Source: Bacteroidota bacterium (GTDB lineage: Bacteria; Bacteroidota; Ignavibacteria; UBA10030; UBA8401). From it: a stretch of 64,000 nt of DNA. Shown one piece after another: positions 19,060-56,300 of this stretch. Position numbers and translations under genes: made by a program. The DNA lies in NCBI GenBank assembly GCA_035298825.1, contig DATGXR010000444.1:5819-69818 (forward strand). The letters run 5' to 3'. The notes beneath the pieces were generated by a model that had not been told where the DNA came from, searched no databases, and worked only from the letters and a program-made list of their open reading frames with translations. The first letter of the stretch is position 1. Every line of letters begins with the position of its first letter.

Positions 19060-20091
19060 TTATTTTGTCAACACCATTCTCTTTACCGAGACGTACGAAC
19101 CCGCCTGCATCCGACAGAGGTACATGCCGCTGGCCAGACCTGCGGCGCTCCACGAGGTTTGATACCACCCCGGCAGCAACTCCCCATCGACAAGCACGGC
19201 CGAGACCCGACCAAGCATATCATACACTGTCACATTCACTCGCTGGCCCGAGGGAATGGAGAACCAGATTGAAGTTTCCGGATTGAAGGGATTCGGAAAA
19301 TTCTGTTCGAGCTTGAATTCACTGGCCGTTCGTTTCCCGTCAGAGACATGGCTCACCGCCGCTGTGGTTGTAAAATGATAGACGGAAGAAAAAACGCTCT
19401 TCCCATTCGGACTCGCACTCCTGACACGCCAGTAATAGGTTGTGTGGTTGTCGAGCATCAGCGTCTGCGTTGAGCACGCGCCCGCCACACTGCCCGAATC
19501 ACAAAGCGTCGCAAACAACGAATCACTCGAAAGTTGATACTCGTACCATGCCGCATGCGCTGTCTGTTGCCAATGAAGCATCACGCGTTGAGGCTGCTCG
19601 ATAGCATCGTTCACTGGCGTTAACAAAACGGGAGCCGTGGATACGTGCGGCAAGACTGCAGTCATCGATGCAATCACTGCGATGCCGTTGGGGACAAACA
19701 CATCCGGACCCGTGACGTAACGCGTTTGGACTGACGCATATTCGATATCCGTGCTGTGGCTCCAGAGACGGAACGTGATGTGCTCACCGATCGTGATGCC
19801 ATCCACCTCAGGGGTGAACACGTTGTCTCCCCAAACAGTCACTGCGCAATTCGTCCCATTCCAGATGACGCCTCCCACGCACATTCCGGAGACAGTGAAC
19901 GCACCGATCTCATCTCCTGGTGTCAGGCAGACCGTGTCGATCATCGGAGTGCTCGAGACCGGGATCGCCACGATCGCATCCAGCCCCGTGCCCGCGGAGA
20001 ATGAAAAATGGAGACACTGCGATCGTACCGAAAGCGGTGCAGCGATCATCAATGCCATCAGCATGGTTGCACGAATCATTGCTCGTCTCAT
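19060..20091 (-). CDS. secreted protein with Fn3-like domain and T9SS (Por) C-terminal sorting domain
   Basis: Signal peptide MRRAMIRATMLMALMIAAPLSVRSQ. C-terminus …FKLEQNFPNPFNPETSIWFSIPSGQRVNVTVYDMLGRV…YLCRMQAGSYVSVKRMVLTK matches the Por_Secre_tail pattern. Confidence 0.75.
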   Translation of the reverse strand: MRRAMIRATMLMALMIAAPLSVRSQCLHFSFSAGTGLDAIVAIPVSSTPMIDTVCLTPGDEIGAFTVSGMCVGGVIWNGTNCAVTVWGDNVFTPEVDGITIGEHITFRLWSHSTDIEYASVQTRYVTGPDVFVPNGIAVIASMTAVLPHVSTAPVLLTPVNDAIEQPQRVMLHWQQTAHAAWYEYQLSSDSLFATLCDSGSVAGACSTQTLMLDNHTTYYWRVRSASPNGKSVFSSVYHFTTTAAVSHVSDGKRTASEFKLEQNFPNPFNPETSIWFSIPSGQRVNVTVYDMLGRVSAVLVDGELLPGWYQTSWSAAGLASGMYLCRMQAGSYVSVKRMVLTK

Positions 20092-20161
20092 CGGTATTGG
20101 TTTCGTTTTTTTCACTGCATCGTCGTCACTGCAATGTGTCTTCGTTGAAGCCAACAGGAGA

Positions 20162-21982
20162 TCAATCGGGAAGAGGATTCGCCGGATAGACAAGCCTCAC
20201 CGGAGCAGAAACATAGACCATGTATCCGGCGCCCGGTTCGAGTGATACGAACTCCCTTATTCCCTTCGCCGGCCAGTAAATTTTGTTTGCACCGTTGACG
20301 ACAACAAGTTGCATATCCTTAATGCCTGCAAACGCTTCTGCCAGTGTCATGGAATCGGATCGCAGGTACGGAATGAGATTCATTCCCTGCTTGAGTTGTA
20401 ACGGCATGGTCGCCGGATTGATCATGCATCCGCTGAATGTGAGTGTCGTCTCCCTCTCGGCATAGATCCTGTAGCCGGAGCGTGGATCCCAGGTTGTGAT
20501 TGCGTCAATTGAAAGTGCGGGCCAGTACACGCTTCCGGCTCCATTCTTAACAATCACGCCCACCGAGCGAAGATCCCCGCAGATTGAACTCAACGATGAA
20601 TCATTGGGCTGAAGATAACTCGACACCATATTCCATCCCGGCTGCAGATGGACAATTTGTGTTGCCTGCGCCTCAGACGGTTCGACTGGTACCGGAGAGG
20701 CCAAACCGAGTGCGACTGCGATCGCACGCTGCAGCGGATGACGCCTGCCCGATGAGATTGTTTGAGCGGCATCCAGATCCGACACGAAATCGTATGTCAT
20801 GATGCCGCCGAAATGATTGGCATCCATCCAATTTACTTTTTCGACGAGACTCCGCGGCGATTCACCCACCGCAAAAAATTTCATTCCGGTCGCTACGCCG
20901 CCTTGGCCCCATCCCACCACGCCCTCATTGCGCAGAGCCGTGCCGCGTATCGAACGCACTTTGCGCACGTCATCCCATTCCTCCGTGCCGCCATTCGACT
21001 TGAGGGCTTCGATGCGATGATACGAGGCGTTCCCGTAATCAATGCCACCGATCGCCTGAAACAAGCTATCGACGTGACGAAGGACATACCCGAATGTCGG
21101 CACGCCGAGTCCGATGCGTTTCGGATCATGACCGGCGGCCACCCACTGCAGCGGCCCGCGCGTATCGTAGGCCTGGCCTTCGAATGTCGGATCGACCGTG
21201 CCTTTATGCAGAGGCGAGATGTGCCACGAGACGTTCGAATTGATCTTGCCATACCATGCATAAACATAATCATAGAGCTGCAGGTTGAACTGTTCGACCA
21301 TGTAATCCTGTTCGGGCGAATACAAGTCCTGTTGTCCGCTGCCTGCTGAGACCATCAGGAGTCCCGGAGCGCCCGAGGGGGTCTTCATCGTGTGAACACG
21401 GCGATGGAGCATGCGGATAAAGCGATTCACGATCTGGGATGAAGGAAGCGGAGCTGCCCAGGCTTCCCAGTCGAGTTCGACGCCGTCAAAATGTTTCCGT
21501 TCCGCCCACGTCACAAGCGTAGTGATGAAGAGCTCCGTACGCGCGGAATCAGCCGTCACATAATTTAAGTTCTTTGAATTGACCGCCTGGATCGTAATGA
21601 CAACTTTTACTCCCTTGCGGTGTGCGATCGTGACGAGTGAATCCAGATAGTGGGGATATCTTCCATCTCCCGGATTAGCCACACCGTTGAACTCCACGCA
21701 GACTGAATCCGATTCTGTATCCGAGGGCCGCGAAGGCGGCGGCCCGAACATATACGCCCAATAGGGCGCGGTCTTTGTGATATTCCCATTGTCGAACAAG
21801 ACCAAATGCGTCAGTCCGGTCCAATCGATTTCCCAGGGGGGCAAGGCATAGTCCGTCACGCCCAATGGCATCATCGACCATGTGGCATAATATGTGGTAA
21901 ACCATTTTGCCTGCCCCGCAGCGCTCAGCGAGAACAGGATACACAGCAGCACCCCCTGCAACAACCGATATGCGTGCTTCAC
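20162..21982 (-). CDS. glycoside hydrolase family 18 (chitinase-like) with about 280-aa C-terminal extension
   Basis: …FDGVELDWEAW… (DGxxxDWE catalytic motif, with E in place of the middle Asp). TIM-barrel N-half. Start moved to the GTG at 21982 (VKHAYRLLQGVLLCILFSLSAAGQ signal peptide), preceded by GGAGG. This removes the overlap with the next gene. Confidence 0.85.
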   Translation of the reverse strand: MKHAYRLLQGVLLCILFSLSAAGQAKWFTTYYATWSMMPLGVTDYALPPWEIDWTGLTHLVLFDNGNITKTAPYWAYMFGPPPSRPSDTESDSVCVEFNGVANPGDGRYPHYLDSLVTIAHRKGVKVVITIQAVNSKNLNYVTADSARTELFITTLVTWAERKHFDGVELDWEAWAAPLPSSQIVNRFIRMLHRRVHTMKTPSGAPGLLMVSAGSGQQDLYSPEQDYMVEQFNLQLYDYVYAWYGKINSNVSWHISPLHKGTVDPTFEGQAYDTRGPLQWVAAGHDPKRIGLGVPTFGYVLRHVDSLFQAIGGIDYGNASYHRIEALKSNGGTEEWDDVRKVRSIRGTALRNEGVVGWGQGGVATGMKFFAVGESPRSLVEKVNWMDANHFGGIMTYDFVSDLDAAQTISSGRRHPLQRAIAVALGLASPVPVEPSEAQATQIVHLQPGWNMVSSYLQPNDSSLSSICGDLRSVGVIVKNGAGSVYWPALSIDAITTWDPRSGYRIYAERETTLTFSGCMINPATMPLQLKQGMNLIPYLRSDSMTLAEAFAGIKDMQLVVVNGANKIYWPAKGIREFVSLEPGAGYMVYVSAPVRLVYPANPLPD

Positions 21983-22070
21983 TGATAACCTCCAATAAGA
22001 AAGAGAGTGAAAGTGGATACAGCGTGCCGATGATTCTCCAGGCACATGACATCTTTTGCACCGCGCTTTC

Positions 22071-24005
22071 TTAGTGCTTGGATCTCTGCGCAAACGGCTG
22101 GACCGAACGCAGACGGATATTGTCGTAATAGACGCATGCATGTCCGGGCATGTCGCGCCTCAGGAAAAATTTTGTGAAAGGCTCGGCTCCCGAAATCGGA
22201 ACGGTGATCGCATTCCATTGATCGGCTGTCAGCCGGACTTTCTGTGAAGTGTTGTTCGAGAAAACGATCTCGAGCAAGAACGATTCCGAGGGATAGGCAT
22301 CGAACGAGAGTTCCTTATACTCTGTTGCGAGGATCGGCGTTTCTTCGCCCCACGTGCCGTGTTGAAGCCAAAGCGCACCATGGTCTCCGTACTCGACTTT
22401 GATCGATCGTGAACCTGATTTGAATCGCTCCGTCGATTTAAAATTATTCACAACGCCCCAGGAGGCATCAATAAACGGCGCGCGTAGTTCCTCGTCGAAC
22501 ACCACAAGATCATCGAACGATGGACCTTTGCCCCGGTTGCTGACTGTAACGGTGATTTGCGATGCGCCGATATTATTTGCCTCATCCCATGCTTCGATTC
22601 TGATGAGATGGGTTCCGTTTGTCAGTCGCCAGGTATTGAGCGGCGCAGATACGGCGGGTGATTCTTCACACACCGGTCCGTAGGGGACGCCATCGATGAG
22701 AAATCGCAGGCCAACAATGCCGCGATTGTCCTGTGCTTCGGCCTTCAGGCTGATCACACCATTGATCGTTGCTTTTTCTTTGGGAAATGTGACACGCGCC
22801 CGCGGTTTTTCCGTGTCCTGTGTGCGAGGGCGAAGATCGCCCAGCGCGCGCGCGCGCGTGCAAACGGCAGCTGCCACACTTTGCATGAGCTGATTGCGGG
22901 CGCCCGGTTTTTCAGCCGGGAGATATCCCGCGCCCAGTTCGTAGACCATCACGCCGCCGAGACCGAGCGATCTGGCATATTCGACTTTCAGTCTGCAGCT
23001 CGAAGTATCCTCATATGAAATAAAGGTCGTGCCGTCGCCAAACCATGGCACTTGTGAAGAGTGATCCCAGTGCCGTCCTCGTTTTGGAATATCGCGCACC
23101 GTGCCCCAGTTGTGCTCGCCATAGGGACGCGAAGGTTCCACCGGCGGCGTTACATTGGTGAAGACTGTTGTGGTAAACGAAATGCTTACGCCGATTTTTG
23201 AGGCAGGATAGCCTTGGTCGAGCCACGACTTTGGTCCATGCCCGACCTGATCGATAGAAGTGCCGATATACGGTGTAAATTGGGTCGATGAAAAAACCGG
23301 CCCATTATACCCGGTGAGATTTTTCGAGTAATCGCCTCTGTAAAGCTCATATGTCATCGGATTGATCTGGTCGAACACTTCAACCATCGTCTTGCGATCA
23401 TAGGCCGGCAGCGGCGATTCGTTCGTTGCGGCGATAAAGATGCCGCGGGGCGATGACTGATCAAGCTCCTTGCGAAAGCGCCGGATGAGTTGATTGTGCC
23501 GCCATTTGTCCGCGAACTGAGGAAATTCCCAATCGAGTTCAATGCCGTCAATTTTCCATCGCCGCGCAAAGGCGCACGCGGCTGTCACGAAAACATCGAT
23601 GCGCCGATCGTCCTGGGCGATAAAACGCATATTGTCTGCTCCTGGCCCCCAAATGCCGCCGACTGAAAGAATGACCTTGACTCCTTTTTGATGAGCCGCG
23701 GAGACGAGTTCCTTTAAAAATTCGCCAGGCCGTCCGCAATCGACACCGTTGACAAGATTGGCGCTGTCCCGTCGTGTGACGAGCACATCAAGATACGGAG
23801 CCTGTCTCACCGGATTGGCAGAGAACAGCACCACATGCGTCATCAAAGAAAAATCAATCTCCGACACGGGCATCTGGTTATAATACCACCATGGATAATA
23901 TGCCGTGATCCACATCGGTTGACGTTGGGCCTCGAGCCGAATCGCAGAGACGCTGATGAGGACGCTCACAAGAAAGGCGGTGATCATTGCATGTCGTCGT
24001 CGCAT
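22071..24005 (-). CDS. glycoside hydrolase family 18 paralogue with C-terminal Ig-like and CBM-like domains
   Basis: Signal peptide MRRRHAMITAFLVSVLISVSAIRLEAQ. …IDGIELDWEFP… GH18 motif. Then an Ig-like segment and beta-sandwich-like tail. About 35-40% alignable by eye to the preceding GH18. Confidence 0.85.
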   Translation of the reverse strand: MRRRHAMITAFLVSVLISVSAIRLEAQRQPMWITAYYPWWYYNQMPVSEIDFSLMTHVVLFSANPVRQAPYLDVLVTRRDSANLVNGVDCGRPGEFLKELVSAAHQKGVKVILSVGGIWGPGADNMRFIAQDDRRIDVFVTAACAFARRWKIDGIELDWEFPQFADKWRHNQLIRRFRKELDQSSPRGIFIAATNESPLPAYDRKTMVEVFDQINPMTYELYRGDYSKNLTGYNGPVFSSTQFTPYIGTSIDQVGHGPKSWLDQGYPASKIGVSISFTTTVFTNVTPPVEPSRPYGEHNWGTVRDIPKRGRHWDHSSQVPWFGDGTTFISYEDTSSCRLKVEYARSLGLGGVMVYELGAGYLPAEKPGARNQLMQSVAAAVCTRARALGDLRPRTQDTEKPRARVTFPKEKATINGVISLKAEAQDNRGIVGLRFLIDGVPYGPVCEESPAVSAPLNTWRLTNGTHLIRIEAWDEANNIGASQITVTVSNRGKGPSFDDLVVFDEELRAPFIDASWGVVNNFKSTERFKSGSRSIKVEYGDHGALWLQHGTWGEETPILATEYKELSFDAYPSESFLLEIVFSNNTSQKVRLTADQWNAITVPISGAEPFTKFFLRRDMPGHACVYYDNIRLRSVQPFAQRSKH

Positions 24006-24069
24006 ATGGTATCTTGTCGGTTTCGTGATTGAATGGCGGCGGTTGTGATCAGCTGTGCGAAAAATCGGT

Positions 24070-26106
24070 TCAGGCAAATCTGGACTTCATCGGCCGCACA
24101 CACACACCTCCTGATGTATGCCTGCGGGCATGTGCGTCTTCAGCCACGGTCACAGCGTCTCCCGATTCACCTGCGCCGGCCGGTGCGTCAATGATGATGC
24201 TCCCACTGGCCTCCGTGGTATGCACGCGTTCTTCGTGCAAGATGTCTTCACAGATGACGCGCATCTTCCTGATCGGAATGTGATGTAGCTGCGCTGTCAG
24301 CCGAAGACGGGTCATCGACGTTTCCTTAATCGAATCAGAGCAAAGAATAATCTCGTCGACGCCGATCGTGCGGAGAAGGAATGAGAGTTTCCAATGTCCG
24401 CCATAGATCGGATAACCGTTGAGGGTCTTGCCTTCCAGCGTTGAATCATCGTCTAAAAATCCGATGGGCGAATAATTCGTCACTGTTGAATCCAGGATCC
24501 GATCAAGCATCATGATTCCGTTATCATCGGCGCCATAGAACAATACCCGCTTGCCGGCTTTGAGATCTTTATGTGACAAGTACTGCAAGACGCGAAACGA
24601 CATGCGAAAGCCGACAACAAGCGTCAACAGGAAATAGAAATCCAGCATCAATGTGAGCACGTGATCGGTCTTGAGTGGAGAGACAACGATGATTCCGGTG
24701 ATGATTGTGGCGGTGAGCGCGAATCCGACGCACTTGATCATTCGCAGCACATCGCCTAATCCCAAGAGCCTGAAGGTGCCGCGGTAGAGTCCAGAAATCC
24801 TGAACACGCTTACCTGGATCACCGTTACGGCAGCAAGCAGCTCCACCACGACGCGGGGTTGTTCTTGAGGCAGTCCATAGAGCCAGTGCGTGAGCGCGTA
24901 TGCGCAGGAAAAGGAAACAAGAATGAACGCGACATCAAAGAAGACCTGGAGCGCGTCCCGTTTCATCAACGGATGATTATAGAGCGGAAGAAATACTCCG
25001 TTTTGAAGTACGGCCATTTCTCTGTAGCGCAGTTGTCGAACACCAATCACGGTCGAGGCGCCGACGGCACCGAGCACAAATGAAGCGTCGAAATTACTCA
25101 TCACTGTCAACGAGAACGCGGTGATCCCGAGCGCGAACGAAATGGCATAGAGCACAAGCACCGCGTTGCGATGCGACAAACCGCGGGCGAGCAGTCGATG
25201 ATGGATGTGGCTCTTATCCGGCTGAAACATGGATTTCAATTTATTGAGGAGCGACGAATTGGCCGTTTGAGCATCGGGGAGGAACGAACGCAACAGCCGG
25301 CGGGCCATCGACAAGAAGGTGTCCATGATCGGCAGGCCCAGGGCCAGGATCGGAACAACGATTGCGAAGGCGGCCGAGCCTTTTGTCGATGAATGCATCG
25401 AAAGCACCGACAGGGCAAATCCCAGGAAAAGGCTTCCCGAGTCACCCAGGAAGATCCGGGCCGGATTGAAGTTGAACCGCAAAAATCCGATCAGTGCGCC
25501 CGACAGCAGGAGTGCCATGCATGCTGTTCCCATATCACCGTTGAATATCGCGATGGGTGAAATGGTGAGAAAAGCAATCGTTGCCACACCGGAAGCCAGG
25601 CCGTCGAGCCCATCGATCAGATTGATGGCATTCGTGATGCCGATCATCCAGATCATTGTCAATGGATAGTCGAACAGGCCGAGGCAGAGGGTCTGGTTCA
25701 TGAACGGAAGGCTGATCGTTGAGATCCTGAATCCGGCAAGATAAATGATGGTACTTAAAAGCAGCTGCACGAGAAATTTTTGCGCCGGTCCAAGCGGATC
25801 AATATCATCCCAGATGCCAAGCGCGAGCACAAGAAAAAGCACCATCGCGAGCGACAACCCCTCAGCAGTCGAAAGCCATGTCTGGGCGATTATCGACGAG
25901 TCGATCGTCACCAGCAGCAGGAACGAGGCGAAAAATCCCCCACAAATTGCAACGCCCCCCATCCTGGGCATGGCCTTCGTATGCACCTTTCGGGCATTCG
26001 GATAATCCATCGCACCGACTGCCGCAGCCAATTTCATGACCTGAGGTGTGAGAACGAGCGATATTCCCACCGACGCCGCAAACGCTATCATCAGATGTAG
26101 CACCAT
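24070..26106 (-). CDS. polyprenyl-phosphate HexNAc-1-phosphate transferase (WecA/MraY GT4-family) fused to a C-terminal TM + nucleotide-sugar-enzyme N-terminal-like domain (as in PglF/WbpM/CapD)
   Basis: N-half: multi-TM MraY/WecA-like (…DYPNARKVHTKAMPRMGGVAI…DGLDGLASG…). C-half: 4 TM then …KRVLFYGADDNGIMMLDRILDSTVTNYSPIGFLDDDSTLEGKTLNGYPIYGG… resembling the CoA-binding/Rossmann N-terminal region of CapD-type proteins. Start at 26106 preceded by GGGGAGGG. Confidence 0.85.
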   Translation of the reverse strand: MVLHLMIAFAASVGISLVLTPQVMKLAAAVGAMDYPNARKVHTKAMPRMGGVAICGGFFASFLLLVTIDSSIIAQTWLSTAEGLSLAMVLFLVLALGIWDDIDPLGPAQKFLVQLLLSTIIYLAGFRISTISLPFMNQTLCLGLFDYPLTMIWMIGITNAINLIDGLDGLASGVATIAFLTISPIAIFNGDMGTACMALLLSGALIGFLRFNFNPARIFLGDSGSLFLGFALSVLSMHSSTKGSAAFAIVVPILALGLPIMDTFLSMARRLLRSFLPDAQTANSSLLNKLKSMFQPDKSHIHHRLLARGLSHRNAVLVLYAISFALGITAFSLTVMSNFDASFVLGAVGASTVIGVRQLRYREMAVLQNGVFLPLYNHPLMKRDALQVFFDVAFILVSFSCAYALTHWLYGLPQEQPRVVVELLAAVTVIQVSVFRISGLYRGTFRLLGLGDVLRMIKCVGFALTATIITGIIVVSPLKTDHVLTLMLDFYFLLTLVVGFRMSFRVLQYLSHKDLKAGKRVLFYGADDNGIMMLDRILDSTVTNYSPIGFLDDDSTLEGKTLNGYPIYGGHWKLSFLLRTIGVDEIILCSDSIKETSMTRLRLTAQLHHIPIRKMRVICEDILHEERVHTTEASGSIIIDAPAGAGESGDAVTVAEDAHARRHTSGGVCVRPMKSRFA

Positions 26107-26277
26107 CGCACCCTCCCCTTTCACACTTACGAATTGATTCACCCGGCGTGTGTATGTGTGTGATGTTCCGCATCGCAATCTTTCTCTTGCAATGGATCAT
26201 GCCGCCCCCCGGCGCTGGAGAAAGATGTCATCACAACGAACACTTTCAACATAGAGTAATTCATGCGCCGATGCAAA

Positions 26278-26311
26278 TTAGAACACGCTAATATGAATTA
26301 GAATATTCTAA
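26278..26311. promoter_or_regulatory. second copy of the tandem palindromic operator: TTAGAA-CA-CGCTAA, 6-bp spacer, TTAGAA-TA-TTCTAA; on the minus strand followed by TTTGCAT (-35-like), 17 bp, TATGTT (-10-like)
   Basis: About 170 bp upstream of the WecA-like gene start (26106) and 82 bp downstream of the EBP-like gene stop. The motif, spacing and flanking GTTCTAATTTGC are shared with site 17082-17115. Confidence 0.5.
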
Positions 26312-26392
26312 CGCATCGTCACACGCCAAGGCGAAAGAGAAGGAGGAACGGCTCACCTGCAATCGTTCAAGAGGAAGAAGAGCGGGGGGCGT

Positions 26393-34246: not shown

Positions 34247-34253
34247 CCGACAC

Positions 34254-48182: not shown

Positions 48183-48204
48183 TTAGAATCATTGGTACGA
48201 TGTT

Positions 48205-48858: not shown

Positions 48859-49640
48859 TCATTTCAACAATCCAAACAAATCCCTCATTCGGCATGAAGG
48901 AAGCAAATACGATCGAGGCGTTGACGCTGATGCGCTCGGTTGAAGCCGATGTGTACGTGCTGCCGGAACTCTTCGCCTCGGGATATCATTTCGCATCGGC
49001 AGCCGAAGCGGCATCGCTTGCCGAAGCCTTCAAGACGGGACCGACATTTACGGCCCTTACGCAATTTGCCGAAGCGACCAAATCGTTCGTCGTCTTCGGA
49101 TTTGCAGAAACCGATAATGGCACGCTCTATAATTCCTCGGCCATCGTCGGGTACGACGGCACATGCGTACTCTACCGTAAAGTTCACTTGTTCGACCGAG
49201 AGAAACTTTTTTTCGCTCCCGGCAATCTTGAATTCACTGTTGTGACGACGCCCGTGGCGCGCATCGGCATGATGATCTGCTTCGACTGGTATTTTCCTGA
49301 AAGCGCCCGCACGCTGGCGCTCAAAGGAGCGCAGCTCATCGCACATCCCTCGAATCTTGTGCTGCCTCACTGCCCGAATTCGATGCCGGTGCGTTCGCTC
49401 GAGAATCGCGTCTTCACAGCGACGGCAAACCGTGTGGGCGCCGATCTCCGTCCGCACGGGACGCTCTCATTTATCGGGCAAAGCCAGATCACCAGTCCCA
49501 TGGGCGAAATTCTTCACCGCTCATCGGCCACGTGCGCTGAAGCCGCACGTGTCACGATCGAACCCGGACGCGCCGACAATAAATCTGCCACCGAGCGCAA
49601 CAATCTCTTTGCAGACCGGCGCCCGGAATTTTATGCATAA
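48855..49640 (+). CDS. carbon-nitrogen hydrolase (nitrilase superfamily amidase)
   Basis: Glu-Lys-Cys triad contexts: …YVLPELF…, …YRKVHLF…, …MMICFDWYFPE… ATGA overlap with the upstream gene. Confidence 0.9.
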   Translation: MIISTIQTNPSFGMKEANTIEALTLMRSVEADVYVLPELFASGYHFASAAEAASLAEAFKTGPTFTALTQFAEATKSFVVFGFAETDNGTLYNSSAIVGYDGTCVLYRKVHLFDREKLFFAPGNLEFTVVTTPVARIGMMICFDWYFPESARTLALKGAQLIAHPSNLVLPHCPNSMPVRSLENRVFTATANRVGADLRPHGTLSFIGQSQITSPMGEILHRSSATCAEAARVTIEPGRADNKSATERNNLFADRRPEFYA

Positions 49641-49659
49641 GACGAGTGAGGCATCGCAC

Positions 49660-50970
49660 ATGCAGATATCAGCAATCCCGAGTAAGATGCCGGAGCGCAT
49701 CGCCGTCGTGGACATCCTGCGCGGATTCGCGCTTGGCGGGATTCTTGCGGCGAATATGGCCGATTTCACATCTCCGTATTTCGCCGCGCCGCTTGAAGTC
49801 CTCTGGCCCCAGACGCACAACCGCATTGTCCTGGGTCTGATCGAGATCTTCGTCATCAACAATTTTTTCACGATCTTCTCGTTCCTCTTCGGCCTCGGCC
49901 TTGCGCTACAGATGATGCGTCTTGAAGCCCGGGGCATCCGCTTCGTGCCCCTCTACTTGCGACGCCAATCGGTGTTGCTTGCGATCGGTTTGCTGCAGGG
50001 ATTGTTCATCTGGTATGGCGATATTCTCGCACCGTATGCGCTCTTTGGCTGCCTGTTACTCCTTGTGCGCCGTCTGGATCCGAAGCGCCTTGCGCTCATC
50101 GCCGCCGCATTCATCCTCATCCCTGTCACAATTTCGCTTGTGCGATTGACAGTGACGCAACCGGCATCGCATGTCTCCCCGGCGCTGAGCGATCCGGTCA
50201 TGATTTCAGGCGCAATTACCGAGGCCTCGCGCGTCACACAAATCTATGCACACGGCAGCTGGAGCGAGATTTTCACTCAACGCGCGAACGAACTTGTCAT
50301 CAATTACAACGGATGGATCGGACGCAGCTACGGTCTGACCGTTGCGGCGATGTTTCTTCTGGGTCTGGCGGCGGGAAAACTGAAACTCTTTCAATCGCCC
50401 GAACTCTTCCGGTCGTTTGCGCGCCGCTTCAGAGTGCCGGGACTTGTCTGCCTTTTCATCACAGGCGCCGGCGTCACCATCCGAATGACGTCAGCACCCG
50501 GGACACTTCCGTTCGTTGCCGAATTGATTTTTTATCAATTCATGAAAATTGCGCATATTGTGATTTCCTTCTTCTATATTTCAAGTGTGACGCTGCTTGC
50601 CTGGCGCCCTCGTTCGGCGCGCATGCTTTCGGTGCTGGCCGCGCCCGGACGCATGGCATTGACGAATTATCTGTTGCAGTCAATCATCTGCACGACGATC
50701 TTTAACAGTTATGGGTTGGGTCTCTTCGGTTCAGTCAGTCCCGCTGCAGGTCTTGGCATGACGGCAGTCTTCTTTTCCGCTCAAGTGGCATTCAGCAATT
50801 GGTTCTTGTCGCGATTCCGATTCGGTCCCGCAGAATGGCTGTGGAAATCGCTGACCTATGGAACGCGCCAACCCTTTTTAATCGGGTTGGCTCCATTGCA
50901 CACACATGATGAATATACGAAAGGCAGAACACACAATGACAGCGTGCATACACCCGTTCACCGCATGTAA
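49660..50970 (+). CDS. DUF418/DUF1624 (YeiB/HGSNAT-like) polytopic membrane protein, possible acyltransferase
   Basis: …RIAVVDILRGFALGGILAANM… N-terminal motif typical of YeiB/DUF418. About 10 TM. Start at the ATG at 49660. Confidence 0.55.
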   Translation: MQISAIPSKMPERIAVVDILRGFALGGILAANMADFTSPYFAAPLEVLWPQTHNRIVLGLIEIFVINNFFTIFSFLFGLGLALQMMRLEARGIRFVPLYLRRQSVLLAIGLLQGLFIWYGDILAPYALFGCLLLLVRRLDPKRLALIAAAFILIPVTISLVRLTVTQPASHVSPALSDPVMISGAITEASRVTQIYAHGSWSEIFTQRANELVINYNGWIGRSYGLTVAAMFLLGLAAGKLKLFQSPELFRSFARRFRVPGLVCLFITGAGVTIRMTSAPGTLPFVAELIFYQFMKIAHIVISFFYISSVTLLAWRPRSARMLSVLAAPGRMALTNYLLQSIICTTIFNSYGLGLFGSVSPAAGLGMTAVFFSAQVAFSNWFLSRFRFGPAEWLWKSLTYGTRQPFLIGLAPLHTHDEYTKGRTHNDSVHTPVHRM

Positions 50971-51910
50971 GGAAGAGACGCGTGCGGCACTGCAAACACA
51001 CCTTCCCTGGTCTCCGATGGATTTCATGCGGGGCATTTCGCTTGAAGGCGACAAAAAAAATTATCTTGACACTGTGTGCCGCGATCTCGATCCTGCAAAC
51101 GATCTGCGCGTGATATATGAAGACGCCGCGCTCAAATTGCGCACGGCAGTGATGGCGGAACGGCTTGTATGGGACAGCCAGTTTTTTGGCTACGGTATCG
51201 CAAAGCTCCATGGGATATTCCAGCTTGATGATCCCGGCTATCGCCCGTTTGTCGATCTGACCGACCCGCTGCGGAATTTTCTTGCCAGGGCGAACGATGC
51301 CGGCATCCGATATATCTTCACACAGATCGACCCGCGCGATCTCGCGCTCCTGCGCGCGCTGGGCGAGCAGGGATTTTGCATGATCGAGCCGCGCTTGTAT
51401 TATCACCGCGGCATACATGACTATGAGTATATCAAGCGGTATCCGGTGCGCGAGGCGCGCGAAGACGATCTGCCGTTTATCACCACCGTGGTGCGCGACA
51501 CGGTCAATATCTACGACCGCTTCCATGCCGATCCGTTCATCGCTCAGGCTGATGCCGATCGACTCATGGAGGAATGGATCCACGCATCGTTCGCGAAAAA
51601 ATTTTCAGACGTCGTCCTGGTTCCCGATCTTCCTGGAGATCCCGTCGCCGTGGTAACAGGCCGGTATTTGAAAAACGAATGGGCGCAATGGAATCTGAAC
51701 GTAAGCCAGGTCGTGCTCGGAGCCAGCTCGGGCCAGGCGCCGGGCTGGGCTGTCAAGCTCCTGTCGGAACTCTTGTATCACTTTGAAGACATCGGCACGC
51801 AGCACGTTTATTTGTCCACGCAGGCAACCAATATCCGCATCATCAAAGTGTGCGAGCATCTGGGAATACATCTGGGCAAATCGGAATTTGTGCTGCGTCG
51901 GGTCTTGTGA
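50936..51910 (+). CDS. GNAT-fold N-acetyltransferase-like protein (WecD-like), two-domain
   Basis: The C-terminal 100 aa show GNAT beta-alpha pattern (…VVLGASSGQAPGWAVKLLSEL…YLSTQATNIRIIKVCEHLGIHL…). The start is uncertain (50936 with GAAAGG SD, or 51017). Contains an A8 tract at 51053-51060. Confidence 0.5.
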   Translation: MTACIHPFTACKEETRAALQTHLPWSPMDFMRGISLEGDKKNYLDTVCRDLDPANDLRVIYEDAALKLRTAVMAERLVWDSQFFGYGIAKLHGIFQLDDPGYRPFVDLTDPLRNFLARANDAGIRYIFTQIDPRDLALLRALGEQGFCMIEPRLYYHRGIHDYEYIKRYPVREAREDDLPFITTVVRDTVNIYDRFHADPFIAQADADRLMEEWIHASFAKKFSDVVLVPDLPGDPVAVVTGRYLKNEWAQWNLNVSQVVLGASSGQAPGWAVKLLSELLYHFEDIGTQHVYLSTQATNIRIIKVCEHLGIHLGKSEFVLRRVL

Positions 51911-51952: not shown

Positions 51953-52939
51953 GTGCAAAAATTATCGATTGTTGTTCCGGTCTATTATAATGCGCCGACT
52001 CTTCCGGTATTGTACGAGGAATTTGTCCGCGTCATGAAAATCCTCGACGACGTTGAAGGCGAATTCATTTTCGTCGACGACGCCTCGGGCGACTCATCGG
52101 CCCGGATTTTGTCGGATCTTGCAAGCGCCGACAATCGCGTGAAGCTTGTCCAGCTGTCGAAAAACCACGGCTCAGGCATTGCGGTCTTCGCGGGATTGTC
52201 GTACGCAACGGGCGACTGCGCCGTCATCATCAGCGCCGATCTTCAGGATCCGCCGTCGCTCATTGTCGAGCTCTTCCGCGGATGGAAAGAAGGCTTTCCG
52301 GCCGTGCTTGCCGTGCGTTCATCGCGCAAGGATCCCTGGCCGACGAAAGTGATGGCGTCGCTTTTTTATCGTCTCATGCGGCGCTTCGGCGTCAAAAATA
52401 TTCCGGAAGGCGGATGCGATTTCGGATTGATCGACCGAAAGATCATCACGGCGATTTTGCAGATGGAAGAAAAAAATTCACATCTCATCATCCAGGTGCT
52501 CTGGACCGGTTTCGACCGGAAGCTGATTCCCTATGAGCGGCGGGCACGTGTGCATGGCAAATCGAAATGGTCGATCGCCAAAAAGCTGAAACTCTTTATT
52601 GACTCCTTTACCGCCTTTTCGTACTTTCCGTTGCGCCTGGTCAGCAGCCTCGGATTCACGATCGCGGCCCTGGGTCTCATCTATGCGCTGTTCATCATAG
52701 GATTGCGCCTTGTCCATGGCGTGGTGATCGAGGGCTGGTCGTCGCTGATGGTTGTGGTATTGATCGCTTCCGGCGCCCAACTGATCGGACTGGGCATCAT
52801 CGGCGAATACCTCTGGCGCGTCCTTGATGAGGTGCGCAAACGCCCCATCTTTCTTGTGAAACGCACGATCGGGTTCGACGCCGATTGCGGCGCCGCAGTC
52901 TCCATTGGCTCAGCGGCGACAAGAGCGTCACACGTATGA
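51953..52939 (+). CDS. GT2 polyprenyl-phosphate sugar transferase (ArnC/GtrB/DPM1-like)
   Basis: …LSIVVPVYYNAPTLPVLYEE…FIFVDDASGDSS…ADLQDPP… plus two C-terminal TM helices. Hallmark of the ArnC/GtrB family. Confidence 0.9.
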   Translation: MQKLSIVVPVYYNAPTLPVLYEEFVRVMKILDDVEGEFIFVDDASGDSSARILSDLASADNRVKLVQLSKNHGSGIAVFAGLSYATGDCAVIISADLQDPPSLIVELFRGWKEGFPAVLAVRSSRKDPWPTKVMASLFYRLMRRFGVKNIPEGGCDFGLIDRKIITAILQMEEKNSHLIIQVLWTGFDRKLIPYERRARVHGKSKWSIAKKLKLFIDSFTAFSYFPLRLVSSLGFTIAALGLIYALFIIGLRLVHGVVIEGWSSLMVVVLIASGAQLIGLGIIGEYLWRVLDEVRKRPIFLVKRTIGFDADCGAAVSIGSAATRASHV

Positions 52940-54579
52940 AGAAGAATCGTTCCTTCGGCATGAGAATGATGATGCCCCCGTATGCGATGAACCAGGCACG
53001 GCTCCGTCAGTGGATCGACATTGTTCCGTTTCTGCTGTTCGGATATTTTTTCTGGACGATCATGCACTCTCCAATGCGCATTAATCACGACTGCGCGTAC
53101 GTGTTGCAGTGCTCGAAGATTCTTGTCGACGGCGGTTTGCCCTATGTGGATTTCATCGACATCAATCCGCCTCTGATTTTTTATATGAACATGGCGCCCG
53201 TTGTTGTGGCCCAGACGGCAGGAATCACGCTGCCTCAGGCGTTTTCCCTCTTTGTGACACTGCAACTGGCTGCATCCGCCTTATTGTTATTCTATCTCTT
53301 CCGTCTTGAAGAGCTTAATCTGAAGGCGCCGGCGCGCTTTGCGCTGTTGCTTGCATGGATTCTGTGCTCGCTCTTTGTGTACGCCACGGGTGACTACGGC
53401 CAGCGCGATCATCTTGTGATGTTGATGGTCTTCCCGTTTATCCTTGTGCGCGTGATCCGCTACTACGGAGATCGTGTGAGTCTTTTGCCTTCACTTGTGA
53501 TCGGAGTGATGACGGGGCTCGGACTGAGCCTCAAGCCGAATTTTTATTTCATCGTGCTTGTGCCGGAGTTTGTGGCGCTTGTGCGTACCCGGCGCATCCG
53601 CACGCTGTTCACGCCGGAAATGTATGCTGCGATCGCATTCAGTCTTGCCTACGTGCTGCATTTTTTACTGCTGCCCGCGCTTGTCCAAACAGAACTCTTT
53701 GGCCGGTGGATGCCGTTTTTCATGCAATATTACGGCACGATCAACATGAATTTGTTCCACCATGTCTTCATGCAACCTCTGGTGATCGCCGGATTGATCG
53801 TGCTTGCATTCGTTGTCGGTATCGGGCTTGTGATCATCCGGCAACGCGGCATGAGCAGCCTGCGCATGGAAATCCTCTCAGCCGCAGCGATCGGCTCGTT
53901 CCTCTCGTATTGGATACAGCAGAAAGGATATTCGTATCACTCGGTGCCATTGAAGCTGGTGTTCGTGATGCTGGCGCTGTTTGTCTCATTCTGGCTCTAT
54001 GAAGAGATCATGCACCGCACAGAAGAGATCCCTTTGCGCCGTTTTGTGGCCGTGAGTCCGACGCTGGTTGTGCTTGCCGGACTGATCGCCTTGACGGCGC
54101 GGGCATTCGCCTCCAACAGCTCCTATGTGAGTTATGAGTCTTTTGCGCCATACAGGCAGGCGATCAGCGCATATTCGAAGAAAGACGACCGCGTGTTGTT
54201 CCTCAACACGATATTGTTCCCGGCGTATCCGACGCTTGTGCAAATGGACCGGATGCCGGGCAGCAGATATCTGACGATCTTTCCGATTGCAGGATTTTAT
54301 TACGGCATGCATGCAGACAGCGCATTTCCGTACAGGTCGCGCGGGCAAATGAATCAGGAGGAACTCCGATTCCTGTGCGAGCTCGAAGTTGATATTGATC
54401 GATTCAAACCCTCGCTTATCTTCATCCATTCGGGAGATACATCTTCGGCTATGCCTCAGGGATTCGATATCCATGAATATTTTATTCGCTCGCACTTTAC
54501 CACCGATGCCATGCACGATTATGAGCGCTCGGGTTCGGTGGGCGACTTTTTCCTTTATCGGCGAAAGAAGCAGATCTGA
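52936..54579 (+). CDS. GT-C fold membrane glycosyltransferase (ArnT/PMT/GT39-GT83-like)
   Basis: 547 aa, at least 11 TM. N-terminal loop …NHDCAYVLQCSKILVDGGLPYVDFIDINPPLIFYM… resembles the GT-C first-loop acidic motif. Genetically paired with the polyprenol-P GT2. ATGA overlap. Confidence 0.6.
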   Translation: MKKNRSFGMRMMMPPYAMNQARLRQWIDIVPFLLFGYFFWTIMHSPMRINHDCAYVLQCSKILVDGGLPYVDFIDINPPLIFYMNMAPVVVAQTAGITLPQAFSLFVTLQLAASALLLFYLFRLEELNLKAPARFALLLAWILCSLFVYATGDYGQRDHLVMLMVFPFILVRVIRYYGDRVSLLPSLVIGVMTGLGLSLKPNFYFIVLVPEFVALVRTRRIRTLFTPEMYAAIAFSLAYVLHFLLLPALVQTELFGRWMPFFMQYYGTINMNLFHHVFMQPLVIAGLIVLAFVVGIGLVIIRQRGMSSLRMEILSAAAIGSFLSYWIQQKGYSYHSVPLKLVFVMLALFVSFWLYEEIMHRTEEIPLRRFVAVSPTLVVLAGLIALTARAFASNSSYVSYESFAPYRQAISAYSKKDDRVLFLNTILFPAYPTLVQMDRMPGSRYLTIFPIAGFYYGMHADSAFPYRSRGQMNQEELRFLCELEVDIDRFKPSLIFIHSGDTSSAMPQGFDIHEYFIRSHFTTDAMHDYERSGSVGDFFLYRRKKQI

Positions 54580-54603: not shown

Positions 54604-55893
54604 ATGCTTATCCTTGATATCATTCATCTTGCCGTGTGGATCGTCTTCGGACTGCCGCTGGTCTATCTGGCCATGCTCACGCTCGCAGCGTTGACCGTGA
54701 AATTGAAGCCGGAGATGCCTTCGCGCGGCGTGCACATGCGCTCATTCGCCATCGTCGTGCCGGCGCACAATGAAGCCATCGCCATACAAAAGACGATCCG
54801 CAGTCTGCAGGCAATCGACTATCCGCGGGTGCTCTTCGAGGTGATCGTCATCGCAGACAACTGCACAGATCACACAGCCGCGCTTGCGCGGACCGAAGGC
54901 GCAACGGTCCTTGAACGATTCAACACACAGCAGCGGGGCAAGGGATATGCACTGCGCTGGTGCTTCGACCGGCTTCTTCACGATGAGACAAAAAGGTATG
55001 AGGCCTTCGTCGTGATCGATGCCGACACGGTTGTGTCAGGCAACTATCTTTCAATGCTCACTGTTGCAATAGAAGACGGCGCGCACGTGATGCAGACAAG
55101 CGATCTGGTCGAACCCTGTCCGGGTGCGTGGACGACCGAAGCGCTTCGCCTTGCCTTTGTGCTCTATAATTACGTTCGGCCTCTGGGACGAAAGGCGCTC
55201 GGCTTTTCGGCAGGATTGCGGGGTAACGGTATGTGCTTCACGCGCCAGGCCCTTGCAAGCGTCCCGTGGCAGGCTTACTCGAAGGCCGAAGATCTTGAGT
55301 ACGGATTGCAGATGCTCCTCTCGGGCTACTCGACCAGATTCGTGCCTGAAGCTGTGGCGCTGGCGACAATGCCGCAGCAGGCGGTCAACGCAGAAAGCCA
55401 GCGCGCGCGCTGGGAAGGCGGCCGCCTCCCCCTGATCCGGCGTTATGCGGGGCCGTTGCTTTGGTTTGCGCTGCGCCGAAGATCGATCGCCGCACTGGAT
55501 GCCTTTATCGACCTTGCCACGCCGGCCTTCGTCAATATGATGGCAATCGCCCTCGGCGCATCGTTTCTGTGTGCGGTGGTATTTGTGACAATCGCCGGAG
55601 CAGATGCGGCCGGGATGTACGCGCTGGTGTGGTTGGGAGCAATCGTCTCCGGAGTATTCCATGTGACGGCCGGATTGAAAGTGGCGCGCGATCCGTCCCT
55701 TGTACAGACGGTGCTCGCCATCCCGCGGTATGTGGTGTGGAAAACGCTGTTATATGTGAAACTTGCACGAAGAAAAAAATCAGACGAGTGGGTGCGCACG
55801 ACACGTGAAACCTCTGGCACACCACCCCATTCAGTGTCTCCCCCGGCGTCTTCGATGTCAACCGAAGATCCAGGCGCTCCGGACACGCCGTAA
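54604..55893 (+). CDS. membrane-embedded GT2 (PgaC/cellulose-synthase-like processive HexNAc/hexose transferase candidate)
   Basis: N-terminal TM. …FAIVVPAHNEAIAI…VIVIADNCTDHTA…VVIDADTVV… (D, DxD). …QRARWEGG… (Q(R/Q)xRW motif). C-terminal TM bundle. Confidence 0.85.
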   Translation: MLILDIIHLAVWIVFGLPLVYLAMLTLAALTVKLKPEMPSRGVHMRSFAIVVPAHNEAIAIQKTIRSLQAIDYPRVLFEVIVIADNCTDHTAALARTEGATVLERFNTQQRGKGYALRWCFDRLLHDETKRYEAFVVIDADTVVSGNYLSMLTVAIEDGAHVMQTSDLVEPCPGAWTTEALRLAFVLYNYVRPLGRKALGFSAGLRGNGMCFTRQALASVPWQAYSKAEDLEYGLQMLLSGYSTRFVPEAVALATMPQQAVNAESQRARWEGGRLPLIRRYAGPLLWFALRRRSIAALDAFIDLATPAFVNMMAIALGASFLCAVVFVTIAGADAAGMYALVWLGAIVSGVFHVTAGLKVARDPSLVQTVLAIPRYVVWKTLLYVKLARRKKSDEWVRTTRETSGTPPHSVSPPASSMSTEDPGAPDTP

Positions 55894-55931
55894 AAATGTC
55901 CGCAACAATCCGTAAGGAGCAAGGTGCAGCT

Positions 55932-56300
55932 ATGGCAAAGATCCTGATCATCGACGACGATGAGCTTGTGCTCAACGCCTTGAGCAGTCTGCTTCATCAT
56001 GCAGGGCATGAACTCTTTATCACGGCCGACGGTCCGCGCTCCATTGCACTATTTAAAGAGCATAGTCCGGATGTGGTCATCCTTGATCTTGGACTTCCAA
56101 CGACAAGCGGAATGGATGTGCTCACGGAGATCCGGACGATCAACGCAGAGGCAAAAGTGATCATGATCTCAGGCTATACTGCGCCCCAAGTGATCGATGA
56201 AGCAAAGCACAAGGGCGCCTATGCGTTCCTTGAAAAGCCGTTCGAGATCCGCACGCTGATCAATCTGATCGCCACACTGATTCAGCCGGCCCAGAATTAA
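55932..56300 (+). CDS. single-domain CheY-like response regulator
   Basis: …KILIIDDDELV…VVILDLGLPTTSGMDV…VIMISGYT…KGAYAFLEKPF… TAAGGAG SD upstream. Confidence 0.9.
   Translation: MAKILIIDDDELVLNALSSLLHHAGHELFITADGPRSIALFKEHSPDVVILDLGLPTTSGMDVLTEIRTINAEAKVIMISGYTAPQVIDEAKHKGAYAFLEKPFEIRTLINLIATLIQPAQN

Follow-up and report, generated by a model that had tools for sequence, protein, structure and literature searches.

A class-III aminotransferase in a widespread CDP-sugar cassette within a divergent Wzx/Wzy-type exopolysaccharide locus of an Ignavibacteria bacterium

The window analysed here is a stretch of 64,000 nucleotides of contig DATGXR010000444.1, from a Bacteroidota bacterium of the Ignavibacteria. 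At 19060-56300 it contains a divergent exopolysaccharide (EPS) locus of the Wzx/Wzy type, which overall is unremarkable as an exported-polysaccharide gene cluster, and within this locus an operon, rfbG-rmlC-DLO1-rfbF-like-AT3-lmbE (43044-48858), which represents one version of a cassette that many phyla have conserved. This cytidine diphosphate (CDP)-sugar cassette is an uncharacterised, widespread variant of nucleotide-sugar modification: a class-III aminotransferase annotated everywhere as ‘HemL’ (here AT3) is locked into CDP-sugar operons, its companions being either a DXR-II-like oxidoreductase (DLO1) or a C-methyltransferase plus a DUF4910 protein. In the established deoxy-amino sugar pathways of bacterial surface glycans, DegT-type aminotransferases act on deoxythymidine diphosphate (dTDP), uridine diphosphate (UDP) or guanosine diphosphate (GDP) sugars. 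Judged from protein families and gene context, the sugar of the cassette would be CDP-activated and probably carries an amine, an amino-dideoxy-L-hexose being the likeliest reading of the product. On balance we lean towards an explanation of the whole in which a Wzx/Wzy heteropolysaccharide locus is combined with a CDP-amino-sugar cassette, dedicated glycoside hydrolases of family 18 (GH18) and a sigma-54 regulatory set. Knowing the product would assign functions to the PRK06209 family, the DLO1 family and one LmbE subfamily, would correct a mass mis-annotation and would possibly reveal a new monosaccharide. The locus also raises two testable side questions, one on the pair of dedicated GH18 enzymes and the other on a sigma-54 ATPase that is both degenerate and conserved in an EPS operon.

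The aminotransferase AT3 is not HemL

The 32 proteins of the locus and flanking ones were compared with Pfam and NCBIfam families. AT3 (46875-48182, plus strand), a class-III pyridoxal phosphate (PLP)-dependent aminotransferase, scored 698 bits against NF004856/PRK06209 (cut-off 486), and its PLP lysine, K256, was invariant in an alignment of relatives. Public annotation names it glutamate-1-semialdehyde (GSA) 2,1-aminomutase, but it failed all HemL equivalogs (TIGR00713, 224 vs 527 bits; PRK12389, 170 vs 637; PRK00615, 106 vs 706), and in the neighbourhoods examined for this question its context was polysaccharide operons, with no tetrapyrrole-synthesis setting. The curated cut-offs and the sugar-nucleotide operon context across phyla thus ruled out a true HemL, an identity that the preliminary description of this DNA had named as one that would overturn its reading; that a housekeeping HemL was placed here by chance, as the public name would have it, is hardly credible.

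A scan of one genome per species detected AT3 relatives of 59-67% identity in at least 586 species-representative genomes from more than 10 phyla, and relatives of 63-83% identity were found in Acidobacteriota, Planctomycetota, Polyangiaceae, Scalindua and Ignavibacteria. The CDP branch, earlier taken for a peculiarity of this locus, is therefore one instance of a widespread cassette. Aminoglycoside C-6' aminotransferases of the PDB matched AT3 at 86 bits. The AT3 tree followed taxonomy and separated neither the cassette forms described below nor the contexts, indicating that the AT3 reaction is probably the same in both forms.

Distribution and two forms of the cassette

Co-occurrence was counted for the best 80 of the at least 586 AT3 matches (83 loci in all), with flanks of at most 10 kb and some contigs cut; the loci were searched with the window proteins by tblastn, and all their ORFs (open reading frames) were clustered. 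Within 10 kb, AT3 was present in 83 loci, an RfbF-type protein in 66, an RmlC-like protein in 63 and LmbE in 51. DLO (15 loci), RfbG (13) and NodB (one) were rarer, and GH18 was found in none of the 83. The glycosyltransferase (GT) of family GT2 adjoining the cassette of the window (42033-42944, +), a candidate transferase for the cassette sugar, had family members in 30/84 loci, counting the 83 and the window.

Two gene sets recurred. The rarer one, that of the window (form A), comprised RfbG, RmlC, the DLO1 oxidoreductase and the aminotransferase. In the commoner one (form B), which made up the majority of loci, RfbG and DLO1 were replaced by a 351-aa short-chain dehydrogenase/reductase (SDR351), a DUF4910/DUF2172/HTH_47 protein and a Methyltransf_13/14 sugar C-methyltransferase. 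DLO was never seen together with SDR351, DUF4910 or the C-methyltransferase (0/16), nor SDR351 together with RfbG (0/43), indicating two mutually exclusive forms of the cassette; the C-methyltransferase and DUF4910 were paired in 42/47.

The form A set of nucleotidyltransferase, 4,6-dehydratase, RmlC-like protein, DRL_cat protein and aminotransferase was found in Scalindua, in a metagenome-assembled genome (MAG) of the Polyangiaceae and in a third genome, the Polyangiaceae MAG having the five cassette genes in the exact order of the window; in locus L008 the set was a minimal one of five genes. The closest loci, L009 and L010, were from Chitinophagaceae and Bacteroidota MAGs and shared with the window the order Wzx-NodB-GT4-GT4-GT2-RfbG-RmlC-DLO-AT3...RfbF-like-LmbE...CN-hydrolase. 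At least 13 of the best DLO relatives were on contigs equal in length to those of the best AT3 relatives. In the window itself, genes are translationally coupled by 4-nt overlaps (rfbG/rmlC, rfbF-like/AT3 and lmbE/CN-hydrolase), in keeping with an operon.

Form B was present on megaplasmids of cultured Shinella and Sinorhizobium, including pNGR234b of S. fredii NGR234 (Shinella sumterensis plasmid CP132317.1, 516962-524448; NC_012586.1, 1341736-1343034), and, by annotation, gene order and gene sizes only, in a 25-kb island (BRA0428-0439; cassette BRA0433-0439) on chromosome II of Brucella suis and B. melitensis. As in the window, AT3, RmlC, RfbF-like and LmbE proteins lie in a polysaccharide locus in these genera, but an SDR, DUF4910 and a TylC3-type C-methyltransferase take the place of RfbG and DLO1. 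The carriers in the at least 586 genomes thus include cultivable Rhizobiaceae, and Shinella and S. fredii NGR234 are usable model organisms, with Brucella added by annotation only. The Brucella island is absent from B. abortus (PMC1413539), and a 2006 review described it as only possibly involved in polysaccharide synthesis (PMC1435926); for DUF4910, a link to ‘modified polysaccharide biosynthesis’ has been drawn from context alone (PMC4000134). Full-text literature searches returned no study of the cassette, only a DUF4910 structure paper, a DXR-II evolution paper and Brucella gene lists.

Several other genes accompanied the cassette. Apiosidase-like (PF13204) glycoside hydrolases occurred in 22/83 loci (e.g. 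L017, 7512-9107; L087, 18802-20787), polysaccharide pyruvyl transferases in 20/83 and ABC-2 transporters in 18/83. The CN-hydrolase (carbon-nitrogen hydrolase) that follows lmbE in the window (48855-49640, +) has Glu, Lys and Cys where they are expected and a 62%-identical orthologue in L009; unrelated CN-hydrolases lay directly upstream of AT3 in several Verrucomicrobiota loci (L021, L028 and L056). Neighbours such as the CN-hydrolase and a GNAT protein suggest N-acyl handling around the amine. Homologues of Ppd and Ppm were seen beside full cassettes in L037 and L072.

Other enzymes of the cassette

All the cassette genes of the window are on the plus strand. RfbG (43044-44111; motifs TTDKCY and YSNSK) passed the CDP-glucose 4,6-dehydratase equivalog TIGR02622 with 483 bits (cut-off 278). 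The RmlC-type 3,5-epimerase (44108-44656) matched PF00908 with 208 bits and was borderline for TIGR01221 (157.7 vs 155.75 bits); its catalytic His, Lys, Tyr and Asp were present (GMHFQ, VKIVR, MYQVS, SKAD). Catalytic motifs were likewise intact in RfbG, AT3, LmbE, NodB, the CN-hydrolase and both GH18 proteins. Among the 32 locus proteins, no DegT/E1 fold, no E3 (ferredoxin-reductase-type) reductase and no SDR 4-reductase was matched, and the view that this CDP branch departs from the textbook route was borne out.

The RfbF-like sugar-1-phosphate cytidylyltransferase (46066-46878) aligned end to end with the Salmonella glucose-1-phosphate cytidylyltransferase structure 1tzf, its best PDB match, but scored below the equivalog for that activity (TIGR02623, 211 vs 300 bits). 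When eight RfbF examples were scored, a clean split appeared between window-type proteins (205-220 bits) and canonical ones (394-464 bits), the latter being 34-39% identical to the RfbF-like protein of the window. The gene previously listed as rfbF is thus of the RfbF family, but belongs to a paralogous subfamily and not to the equivalog.

LmbE (48205-48858; motifs AHSDD and HQDH), an LmbE/PIG-L zinc deacetylase, followed this split. It was present, adjoining the RfbF-like gene and AT3, in 50/55 loci with the RfbF paralogue, compared with 0/11 loci with canonical RfbF (Fisher p = 4e-9, with no correction for shared ancestry), and three of the five paralogue loci lacking it were cut by contig ends. 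No signal peptide or transmembrane (TM) segment was predicted in LmbE, in keeping with a cytoplasmic enzyme. The co-variation indicates that LmbE is part of the sugar cassette and not, as had been proposed, a sign of polymer editing. Its strictness also suggests that the substrate of the RfbF paralogue is an N-acetylated hexosamine-1-phosphate rather than glucose-1-phosphate; the simplest reading would be that the paralogue activates this compound and that LmbE later removes the acetyl group.

The oxidoreductase (44617-46008), previously described as a SAF-domain reductase, proved to be a DXR-II-like protein of PF21135 (DRL_cat, 153 bits) and of DLO1 type, matching the Brucella DRL structure 3upy over ~400 residues (E = 4e-72). 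At the residues that mark DXR-II, with 3upy numbered as in the family paper, the window protein showed G121A, K191N, T229L and H250Y and kept Lys193. That paper describes as DLO states Ala121, Leu229 and, at 250, a hydrophobic residue, with Leu229 marking DLO1; it reports that DLO1-clade proteins failed to complement dxr, and it left DLO1 without assigned function or genomic context (PMC3847144). The window protein therefore shares fold and family with Brucella DXR-II and the DLO1/DLO2 clades, but Ala, Asn, Leu and Tyr at 121, 191, 229 and 250 ruled out a true DXR-II, that is, a 1-deoxy-D-xylulose 5-phosphate (DXP) reductoisomerase, and here it is tied to a CDP-sugar operon. The exchange of DLO1 for a C-methyltransferase plus DUF4910 indicates that DLO1 probably modifies the keto-sugar before amination.

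Proposed pathway and its alternatives

From gene content, families, motifs, co-occurrence and synteny we infer the following substrates and order of steps. The RfbF paralogue would form a CDP-hexose or CDP-hexosamine, RfbG would convert it into a CDP-4-keto-6-deoxy intermediate and RmlC would epimerise this to the L-series. DLO1 would probably then remodel the skeleton or the redox state of the keto-sugar ahead of amination; AT3, in place of a DegT enzyme, would turn the carbonyl into an amine; LmbE would take off the N-acetyl group; and the adjacent GT2 would transfer the finished sugar.

Some observations weigh against this scheme. RfbG passes the cut-off for CDP-glucose, which favours glucose over an N-acetylhexosamine (HexNAc) as substrate. 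One keto group does not call for an oxidoreductase as well as an aminotransferase, which leaves the DLO1 step unexplained. The loci used for the co-occurrence counts are not phylogenetically independent, and for the regulatory part of the explanation, sigma-54-like matches were not enriched window-wide (10 observed vs 12.7 expected). An AT3 relative of 60% identity lies in a phosphonate operon of a Sunxiuqinia MAG (L074, 4771-12883), which consists of two cytidylyltransferase-phosphoenolpyruvate mutase fusions, a phosphonopyruvate decarboxylase and LicD, then AT3 and a MatE-like protein. Neither RmlC nor RfbF lies near this AT3, whose expected substrate, from its place in the operon, would be phosphonoacetaldehyde. 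Contexts do not form separate groups in the AT3 tree, so AT3 might aminate an aldehyde or a non-sugar substrate.

The phosphonate operon bears on an alternative in which the cassette does two jobs: DLO1 would be a 4-ketoreductase replacing RmlD and would give a neutral CDP-6-deoxy-L-hexose, and AT3, LmbE and the CN-hydrolase would make or unmask a separately attached non-sugar amine, for example an aminoalkyl phosph(on)ate or an amino-acid-derived group. This would fit the lack of an SDR 4-reductase in the locus, the NAD(P)-type oxidoreductase nature of DLO1, the occurrence of AT3 apart from RmlC and RfbF in that operon and the indifference of the AT3 tree to cassette form. Three amidohydrolase types (LmbE, DUF4910 and CN-hydrolase) travel with AT3, which recalls N-acyl-protected amino-aldehyde pathways such as ArgD/ArgE. 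However, if SDR351, which excludes RfbG, is the dehydratase of form B, that form has no reductase candidate and AT3 is the sole consumer of the 4-keto group; this is the best argument for AT3 as a sugar aminotransferase. AT3 also overlaps the cytidylyltransferase gene by 4 nt, an RmlC gene lies within 10 kb of it in 63/83 loci, and no ligase, LicD-type transferase or aldehyde-generating enzyme for such a side group was found in the window. We regard a division into two jobs as rather unlikely.

Another possibility, which we consider quite unlikely, gives a necessary step to all five core enzymes: DLO1 would carry out a DXR-type alpha-ketol (retro-aldol/aldol) rearrangement of CDP-4-keto-6-deoxy-L-hexose to a ring-contracted 3-C-formyl furanose, from which AT3 would form a C-aminomethyl branch. 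Dihydrostreptose formation, through StrM/StrL chemistry, offers an analogy for the ring contraction. The homology between DLO1 and the Brucella reductoisomerase is full-length, and form B fills the DLO1 slot with a sugar C-methyltransferase, another maker of branched sugars. Among characterised enzymes, those closest to AT3 use aldehydes (GSA and the substrates of aminoglycoside C-6' aminotransferases), a further AT3 relative is placed where phosphonoacetaldehyde must be aminated, and the apiosidase-like hydrolases of 22 loci are a weak hint of a branched sugar, although membership of that Pfam family does not fix specificity. On the other side stand the failure of the DLO1 clade to complement dxr and the loss of the K191, T229 and H250 states in the window protein; residues 191, 229 and 250 in turn bind a phosphonate, which is absent from a sugar nucleotide. 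Moreover, a DXR-type enzyme normally also reduces the aldehyde, leaving nothing for AT3, and we are not aware of any polysaccharide with a natural C-aminomethyl sugar. Were the rearrangement real, DLO1 would be the first DXR-II-family enzyme outside isoprenoid synthesis and the C-aminomethyl branched sugar a new sugar class, the sister cassette reaching a branched amino sugar by C-methylation instead; this wider claim, being a shade less probable again, must be called improbable.

Comparison with known pathways

The preferred scheme, with AT3 as a sugar aminotransferase, shares parts with several characterised systems. The CDP-3,6-dideoxyhexose pathways of Salmonella and Yersinia likewise use CDP activation by the RfbF family and an equivalog-level CDP-glucose 4,6-dehydratase, and their ascarylose branch has an RmlC-fold epimerase too. 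That route runs through RfbF/DdhA, RfbG/DdhB, E1 (RfbH/DdhC) and E3 (RfbI/DdhD) to RfbS/RfbE or AscE/AscF, whereas the window lacks E1 (a pyridoxamine phosphate-dependent dehydrase), E3 and the SDR 4-reductase, has a sub-threshold cytidylyltransferase, and adds a class-III aminotransferase, a DXR-II-like oxidoreductase and LmbE. The DegT/WecE/Per pathways to nucleoside diphosphate (NDP)-4-amino-4,6-dideoxyhexoses (such as dTDP-Fuc4NAc, GDP-perosamine and dTDP-viosamine) follow the same logic: the keto-sugar left by a 4,6-dehydratase is transaminated and may be N-acylated, a step to which a weak WecD-like GNAT protein downstream in the window would correspond. They differ from the window in their nucleotide, CDP being used here, and in their aminotransferase, that of the window being class-III (GSA-aminomutase/acetylornithine type) and not DegT_DnrJ_EryC1. 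To our knowledge, no class-III aminotransferase has a demonstrated activity on NDP-4-keto sugars.

In aminoglycoside 6'-amination, the same two families, an LmbE-type 2'-N-acetylparomamine deacetylase (BtrD/NeoL) and a class-III C-6' aminotransferase (BtrB/NeoB/GenB), act together on an N-acetylated sugar. The substrates there are pseudo-oligosaccharides with a C-6' aldehyde produced by a dedicated dehydrogenase, whereas in the window C-6 would be deoxygenated by RfbG and the substrates would be nucleotide sugars. The dTDP-L-dihydrostreptose pathway (StrD, StrE, StrM, StrL) resembles the cassette in its nucleotidyltransferase, 4,6-dehydratase, RmlC-type epimerase and NAD(P)H enzyme acting on a 4-keto-L-sugar, but StrL is an RmlD-type SDR and not DXR-II-like, the nucleotide is dTDP and there is no aminotransferase; we treat this resemblance as mechanistic speculation only.

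The exported-polysaccharide locus

The strand switches at both ends of 19060-56300. By the ORF listing and the Pfam and NCBIfam matches, the minus arm (19060-28970) encodes a protein with a type IX secretion system (T9SS) sorting tail, two GH18 proteins, a WecA fusion, a sigma-54-type AAA+ protein, an outer-membrane protein and Wza. The plus arm (29485-56300) begins with Wzz, an ATPase resembling bacterial tyrosine (BY) kinases, a 56-aa ORF, Wzy, a methyltransferase, a WecG/TagA GT, Wzx and NodB; after these come GT4, GT4, GT9-like, GT4 and GT2 genes, the cassette, the CN-hydrolase, DUF418 and weak GNAT genes, and finally an ArnC-like GT2, a polytopic protein without family, an EpsU-like membrane GT2 and a receiver (REC) protein. 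Its eight GTs are WecG, three GT4, one GT9-like and three GT2 proteins.

Family models were matched by the initiating transferase (WecA fusion; Glycos_transf_4 136 bits, WecA model 121 bits), Wzx (35054-36544; Polysacc_synt 94 bits), Wzy (31980-33512; Wzy_C 38 bits, Wzy_EPS 71 bits), the outer-membrane exporter (OPX) of Wza type (28257-28970, -; Poly_export and SLBB) and the polysaccharide copolymerase (PCP) Wzz (29485-30846; Wzz and GNVR), with an eps_fam ATPase domain (75 bits) as P-loop partner of the latter. The preliminary description of a divergent Wzx/Wzy and Wza/PCP locus for an exported polysaccharide was thus sustained, and the family annotation agreed with its genes almost one for one. 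Its list was confirmed, with corrections to the labels of the oxidoreductase, the RfbF-like protein, the membrane GT2 and the supposed GT-C protein, and was incomplete, omitting the methyltransferase, the CN-hydrolase, the DUF418, GNAT-like and REC genes and the 56-aa ORF.

The locus would make a secreted or capsular heteropolysaccharide exported via Wza and the PCP. HexNAc-1-phosphate would be put on polyprenyl phosphate by the WecA-type fusion enzyme, and the WecG/TagA-type GT (34089-35081; PF03808 207 bits) and seven further GTs would extend the repeat unit, which would be decorated by the S-adenosylmethionine-dependent methyltransferase (33263-34246) and a cytoplasmic NodB-type deacetylase. 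Wzx would flip the unit, Wzy polymerise it and the split PCP and Wza export the chain. The ArnC/PgfS-like polyprenyl-phosphate GT2 (51953-52939; full-length matches of 184-208 bits, under cut-offs; a C-terminal TM pair) and its polytopic partner (52885-54579) would probably add a periplasmic side branch; the partner has at least 8 predicted TM helices and a soluble C-terminal part, and had no Pfam or NCBIfam match even at E = 1, which leaves its earlier GT-C label putative.

The WecA fusion (24070-26178, -; 702 aa, 12 TM segments) joins a WecA/MraY-type polyprenyl-phosphate HexNAc-1-phosphate transferase domain to a TM segment and a CoA_binding_3 module typical of WbaP/WcaJ-type phosphoglycosyl transferases; the catalytic Bac_transf domain was absent by Pfam and NCBIfam, and the fusion was conserved at 655-670 aa in four related loci (L089-L092, see below). 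The BY-kinase-like P-loop ATPase (30852-31751, +) has Walker A, A' and B motifs, and its C-terminus (...GFVFNRVGKHNLS) contains no Tyr; lacking a C-terminal tyrosine cluster, it is doubtful as a subject of Wzc-like autophosphorylation control. The 56-aa two-TM ORF between the ATPase and Wzy (31794-31964, +; MTIL...LTMQQPPIYW) had no family match and had counterparts in L089 (329-496, -) and L091 (2503-2673, -).

Other systems were considered. An XrtA/PEP-CTERM EPS system was rejected on scores below cut-offs for its export, chain-length and kinase proteins (67 vs 180, 143 vs 279 and 101 vs 231 bits, the 143 bits being the XrtA-type ChnLen score of Wzz), and no exosortase was matched among the ORFs given to the family searches across the 64-kb window, which did not cover shorter ORFs. 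In NCBIfam, the membrane GT2 (EpsU), PCP (EpsV), OPX (EpsY) and Wzy (Wzy_EPS) took their best names from the Myxococcus xanthus Eps pathway, and a single-domain response regulator inside the locus is a further likeness; the differences are that all the window scores were far under the equivalog cut-offs and that initiation would be by a WecA-type enzyme, not EpsZ.

Further genes of the plus arm are the GTs at 37368-38600 (GT4), 38597-39820 (GT4), 39817-40779 (GT9-like) and 40793-42001 (GT4), the DUF418/YeiB-like polytopic membrane protein (49633-50970, start approximate; Pfam/NCBIfam and TM scan), the weak GNAT/WecD-like acyltransferase (50906-51910; NF008212 43 bits, Acetyltransf_3 E = 0.003) and the single-domain response regulator (55896-56300). 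The pair formed by the last gene and the membrane GT2 before it (54604-56300) was also found in L027. In the minus arm, a putative outer-membrane beta-barrel protein (27261-28205), with a weak PorV/PorQ match as its sole match, occupies a position filled by a conserved 305-316-aa gene in L089-L092.

GH18 pair, NodB deacetylase and membrane GT2

GH18a (20162-22141, -; PF00704 67 bits) and GH18b with a Big_7 domain (22071-24077, -; PF00704 136 bits) both have signal-like N-termini. Their DxxDxDxE motifs read DGVELDWE and DGIELDWE, with Glu in place of the middle Asp and with retention of the catalytic Glu and of the Asp before it. GH18b belongs to a tiny family of 41 matches at E <= 1e-10 in 5.8 billion proteins, and all four of the neighbourhoods obtained (L089-L092) were of this locus type, with GH18b after the WecA fusion. 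Their shared arm consists of Wzy, a 55-aa ORF, ATPase and Wzz and, divergently, Wza, the outer-membrane protein, the pseudo-enhancer-binding protein described below, the WecA fusion, GH18 and a T9SS-tail protein, with an optional methyltransferase and acyltransferases before GH18 and an optional second GH18 after it. This synteny was kept although the outer flanks differ, one becoming argS. In the window the T9SS C-terminal sorting-domain protein is at 19060-20193 (-; PF18962/TIGR04183), a position also filled in L090.

From this synteny, it is a reasonable reading that the two secreted GH18 proteins are locus-dedicated glycanases for a HexNAc-containing product. ExoK, PslG, PelA and PgaB act on the polymers of their own loci; the hydrolases are locus-encoded here too, and differ in being GH18 enzymes linked to T9SS secretion. 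They might instead be ordinary nutrient chitinases that merely adjoin an EPS locus, any NodB/GH18 ‘editing’ being coincidental: chitinases are classically GH18 enzymes, their secretion through the T9SS is common among Bacteroidota, and neither GH18 occurred in the 83 cassette loci of other lineages. Against this, the GH18b family is very small, its members directly follow the WecA fusion in 4/4 neighbourhoods despite differing flanks, and no chitin-binding module, SusC/D pair or GlcNAc (N-acetylglucosamine) catabolic gene accompanies the GH18 genes. A nutrient role is accordingly unlikely.

The preliminary description had also combined the GH18 enzymes with NodB, LmbE and a PgaC-like GT2 into a polymer-editing signature. 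The conservation of GH18 in this locus type agrees with trimming of the polymer; the remainder of the signature was not upheld. The NodB-fold de-N-acetylase (36397-37512, +) has intact motifs (TFDDGY and HSMHH), but its best partial matches, PgaB and HfsH, were far under the cut-offs (PgaB model, 88 vs 322 bits), and no export signal or TM segment was detected by prediction. It appears to be cytoplasmic and resembles an HfsH-type step more than PgaB. The membrane GT2 (54604-55893, +) matched EpsU (NF041865) over its full length with 290 bits and PgaC (TIGR03937) with 60 bits (cut-off 422) over an N-terminal part only; it is thus EpsU-like and not PgaC-like. Since PgaA and PgaD were also missing from the locus proteins, a PgaABCD/IcaADBC (poly-N-acetylglucosamine) system was ruled out.

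Possible sigma-54 control and flanking genes

A -24/-12-like element, GGGCATACAGATTGCT (29419-29434, +), precedes wzz by 66 nt in the divergent intergenic region, which is 514 bp long, and a counterpart, TGGCACGAG-N2-TTGAA (TGGCAC-N5-TTGAA), was found at the same place in L089 and L091. Outside the locus, a REC-PAS hybrid histidine kinase (13583-17032, +), a stand-alone receiver protein of 252 aa (17201-17959, +) and a true sigma-54 enhancer-binding protein (EBP; 17982-18989, +, start approximate) form a trio (13583-18989) that also flanks the locus in L090, and EBP orthologues lay beside the locus in L090, L091 and L092. The receiver and EBP genes as a single frameshifted NtrC-type gene were ruled out, as L090 has two separate genes with a REC protein of 252 aa.

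The EBP keeps in alignment a GAFTGA-type loop (EAFTGA), the Walker B Asp (LFLDEI) and a helix-turn-helix (HTH_8). In the degenerate sigma-54-type AAA+ protein of the minus arm (pseudo-EBP; 26393-27175, -, 260 aa), AVTREG stands in place of GAFTGA, with a one-residue deletion, the Walker B Asp is replaced by Asn (LINEL), and REC and HTH_8 domains are lacking. This degeneration was common to the window, L089 (4726-5502), L090 (4845-5627) and L091 (6994-7845), and the pseudo-EBP may be a modulator forming hetero-oligomers with the complete EBP outside the locus. Judged from these elements, sigma-54 control of the locus is plausible, and expression would probably depend on the neighbouring set of histidine kinase, receiver and EBP.

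Farther out, at 4359-12049 and 60647-63716, the window encodes a Reg_prop/Y_Y_Y hybrid sensor kinase, a TonB-dependent receptor, a T9SS (CHU_C) lamin-tail-domain protein and a GH113 hydrolase; these genes are of glycan-utilisation type and lie outside the locus.

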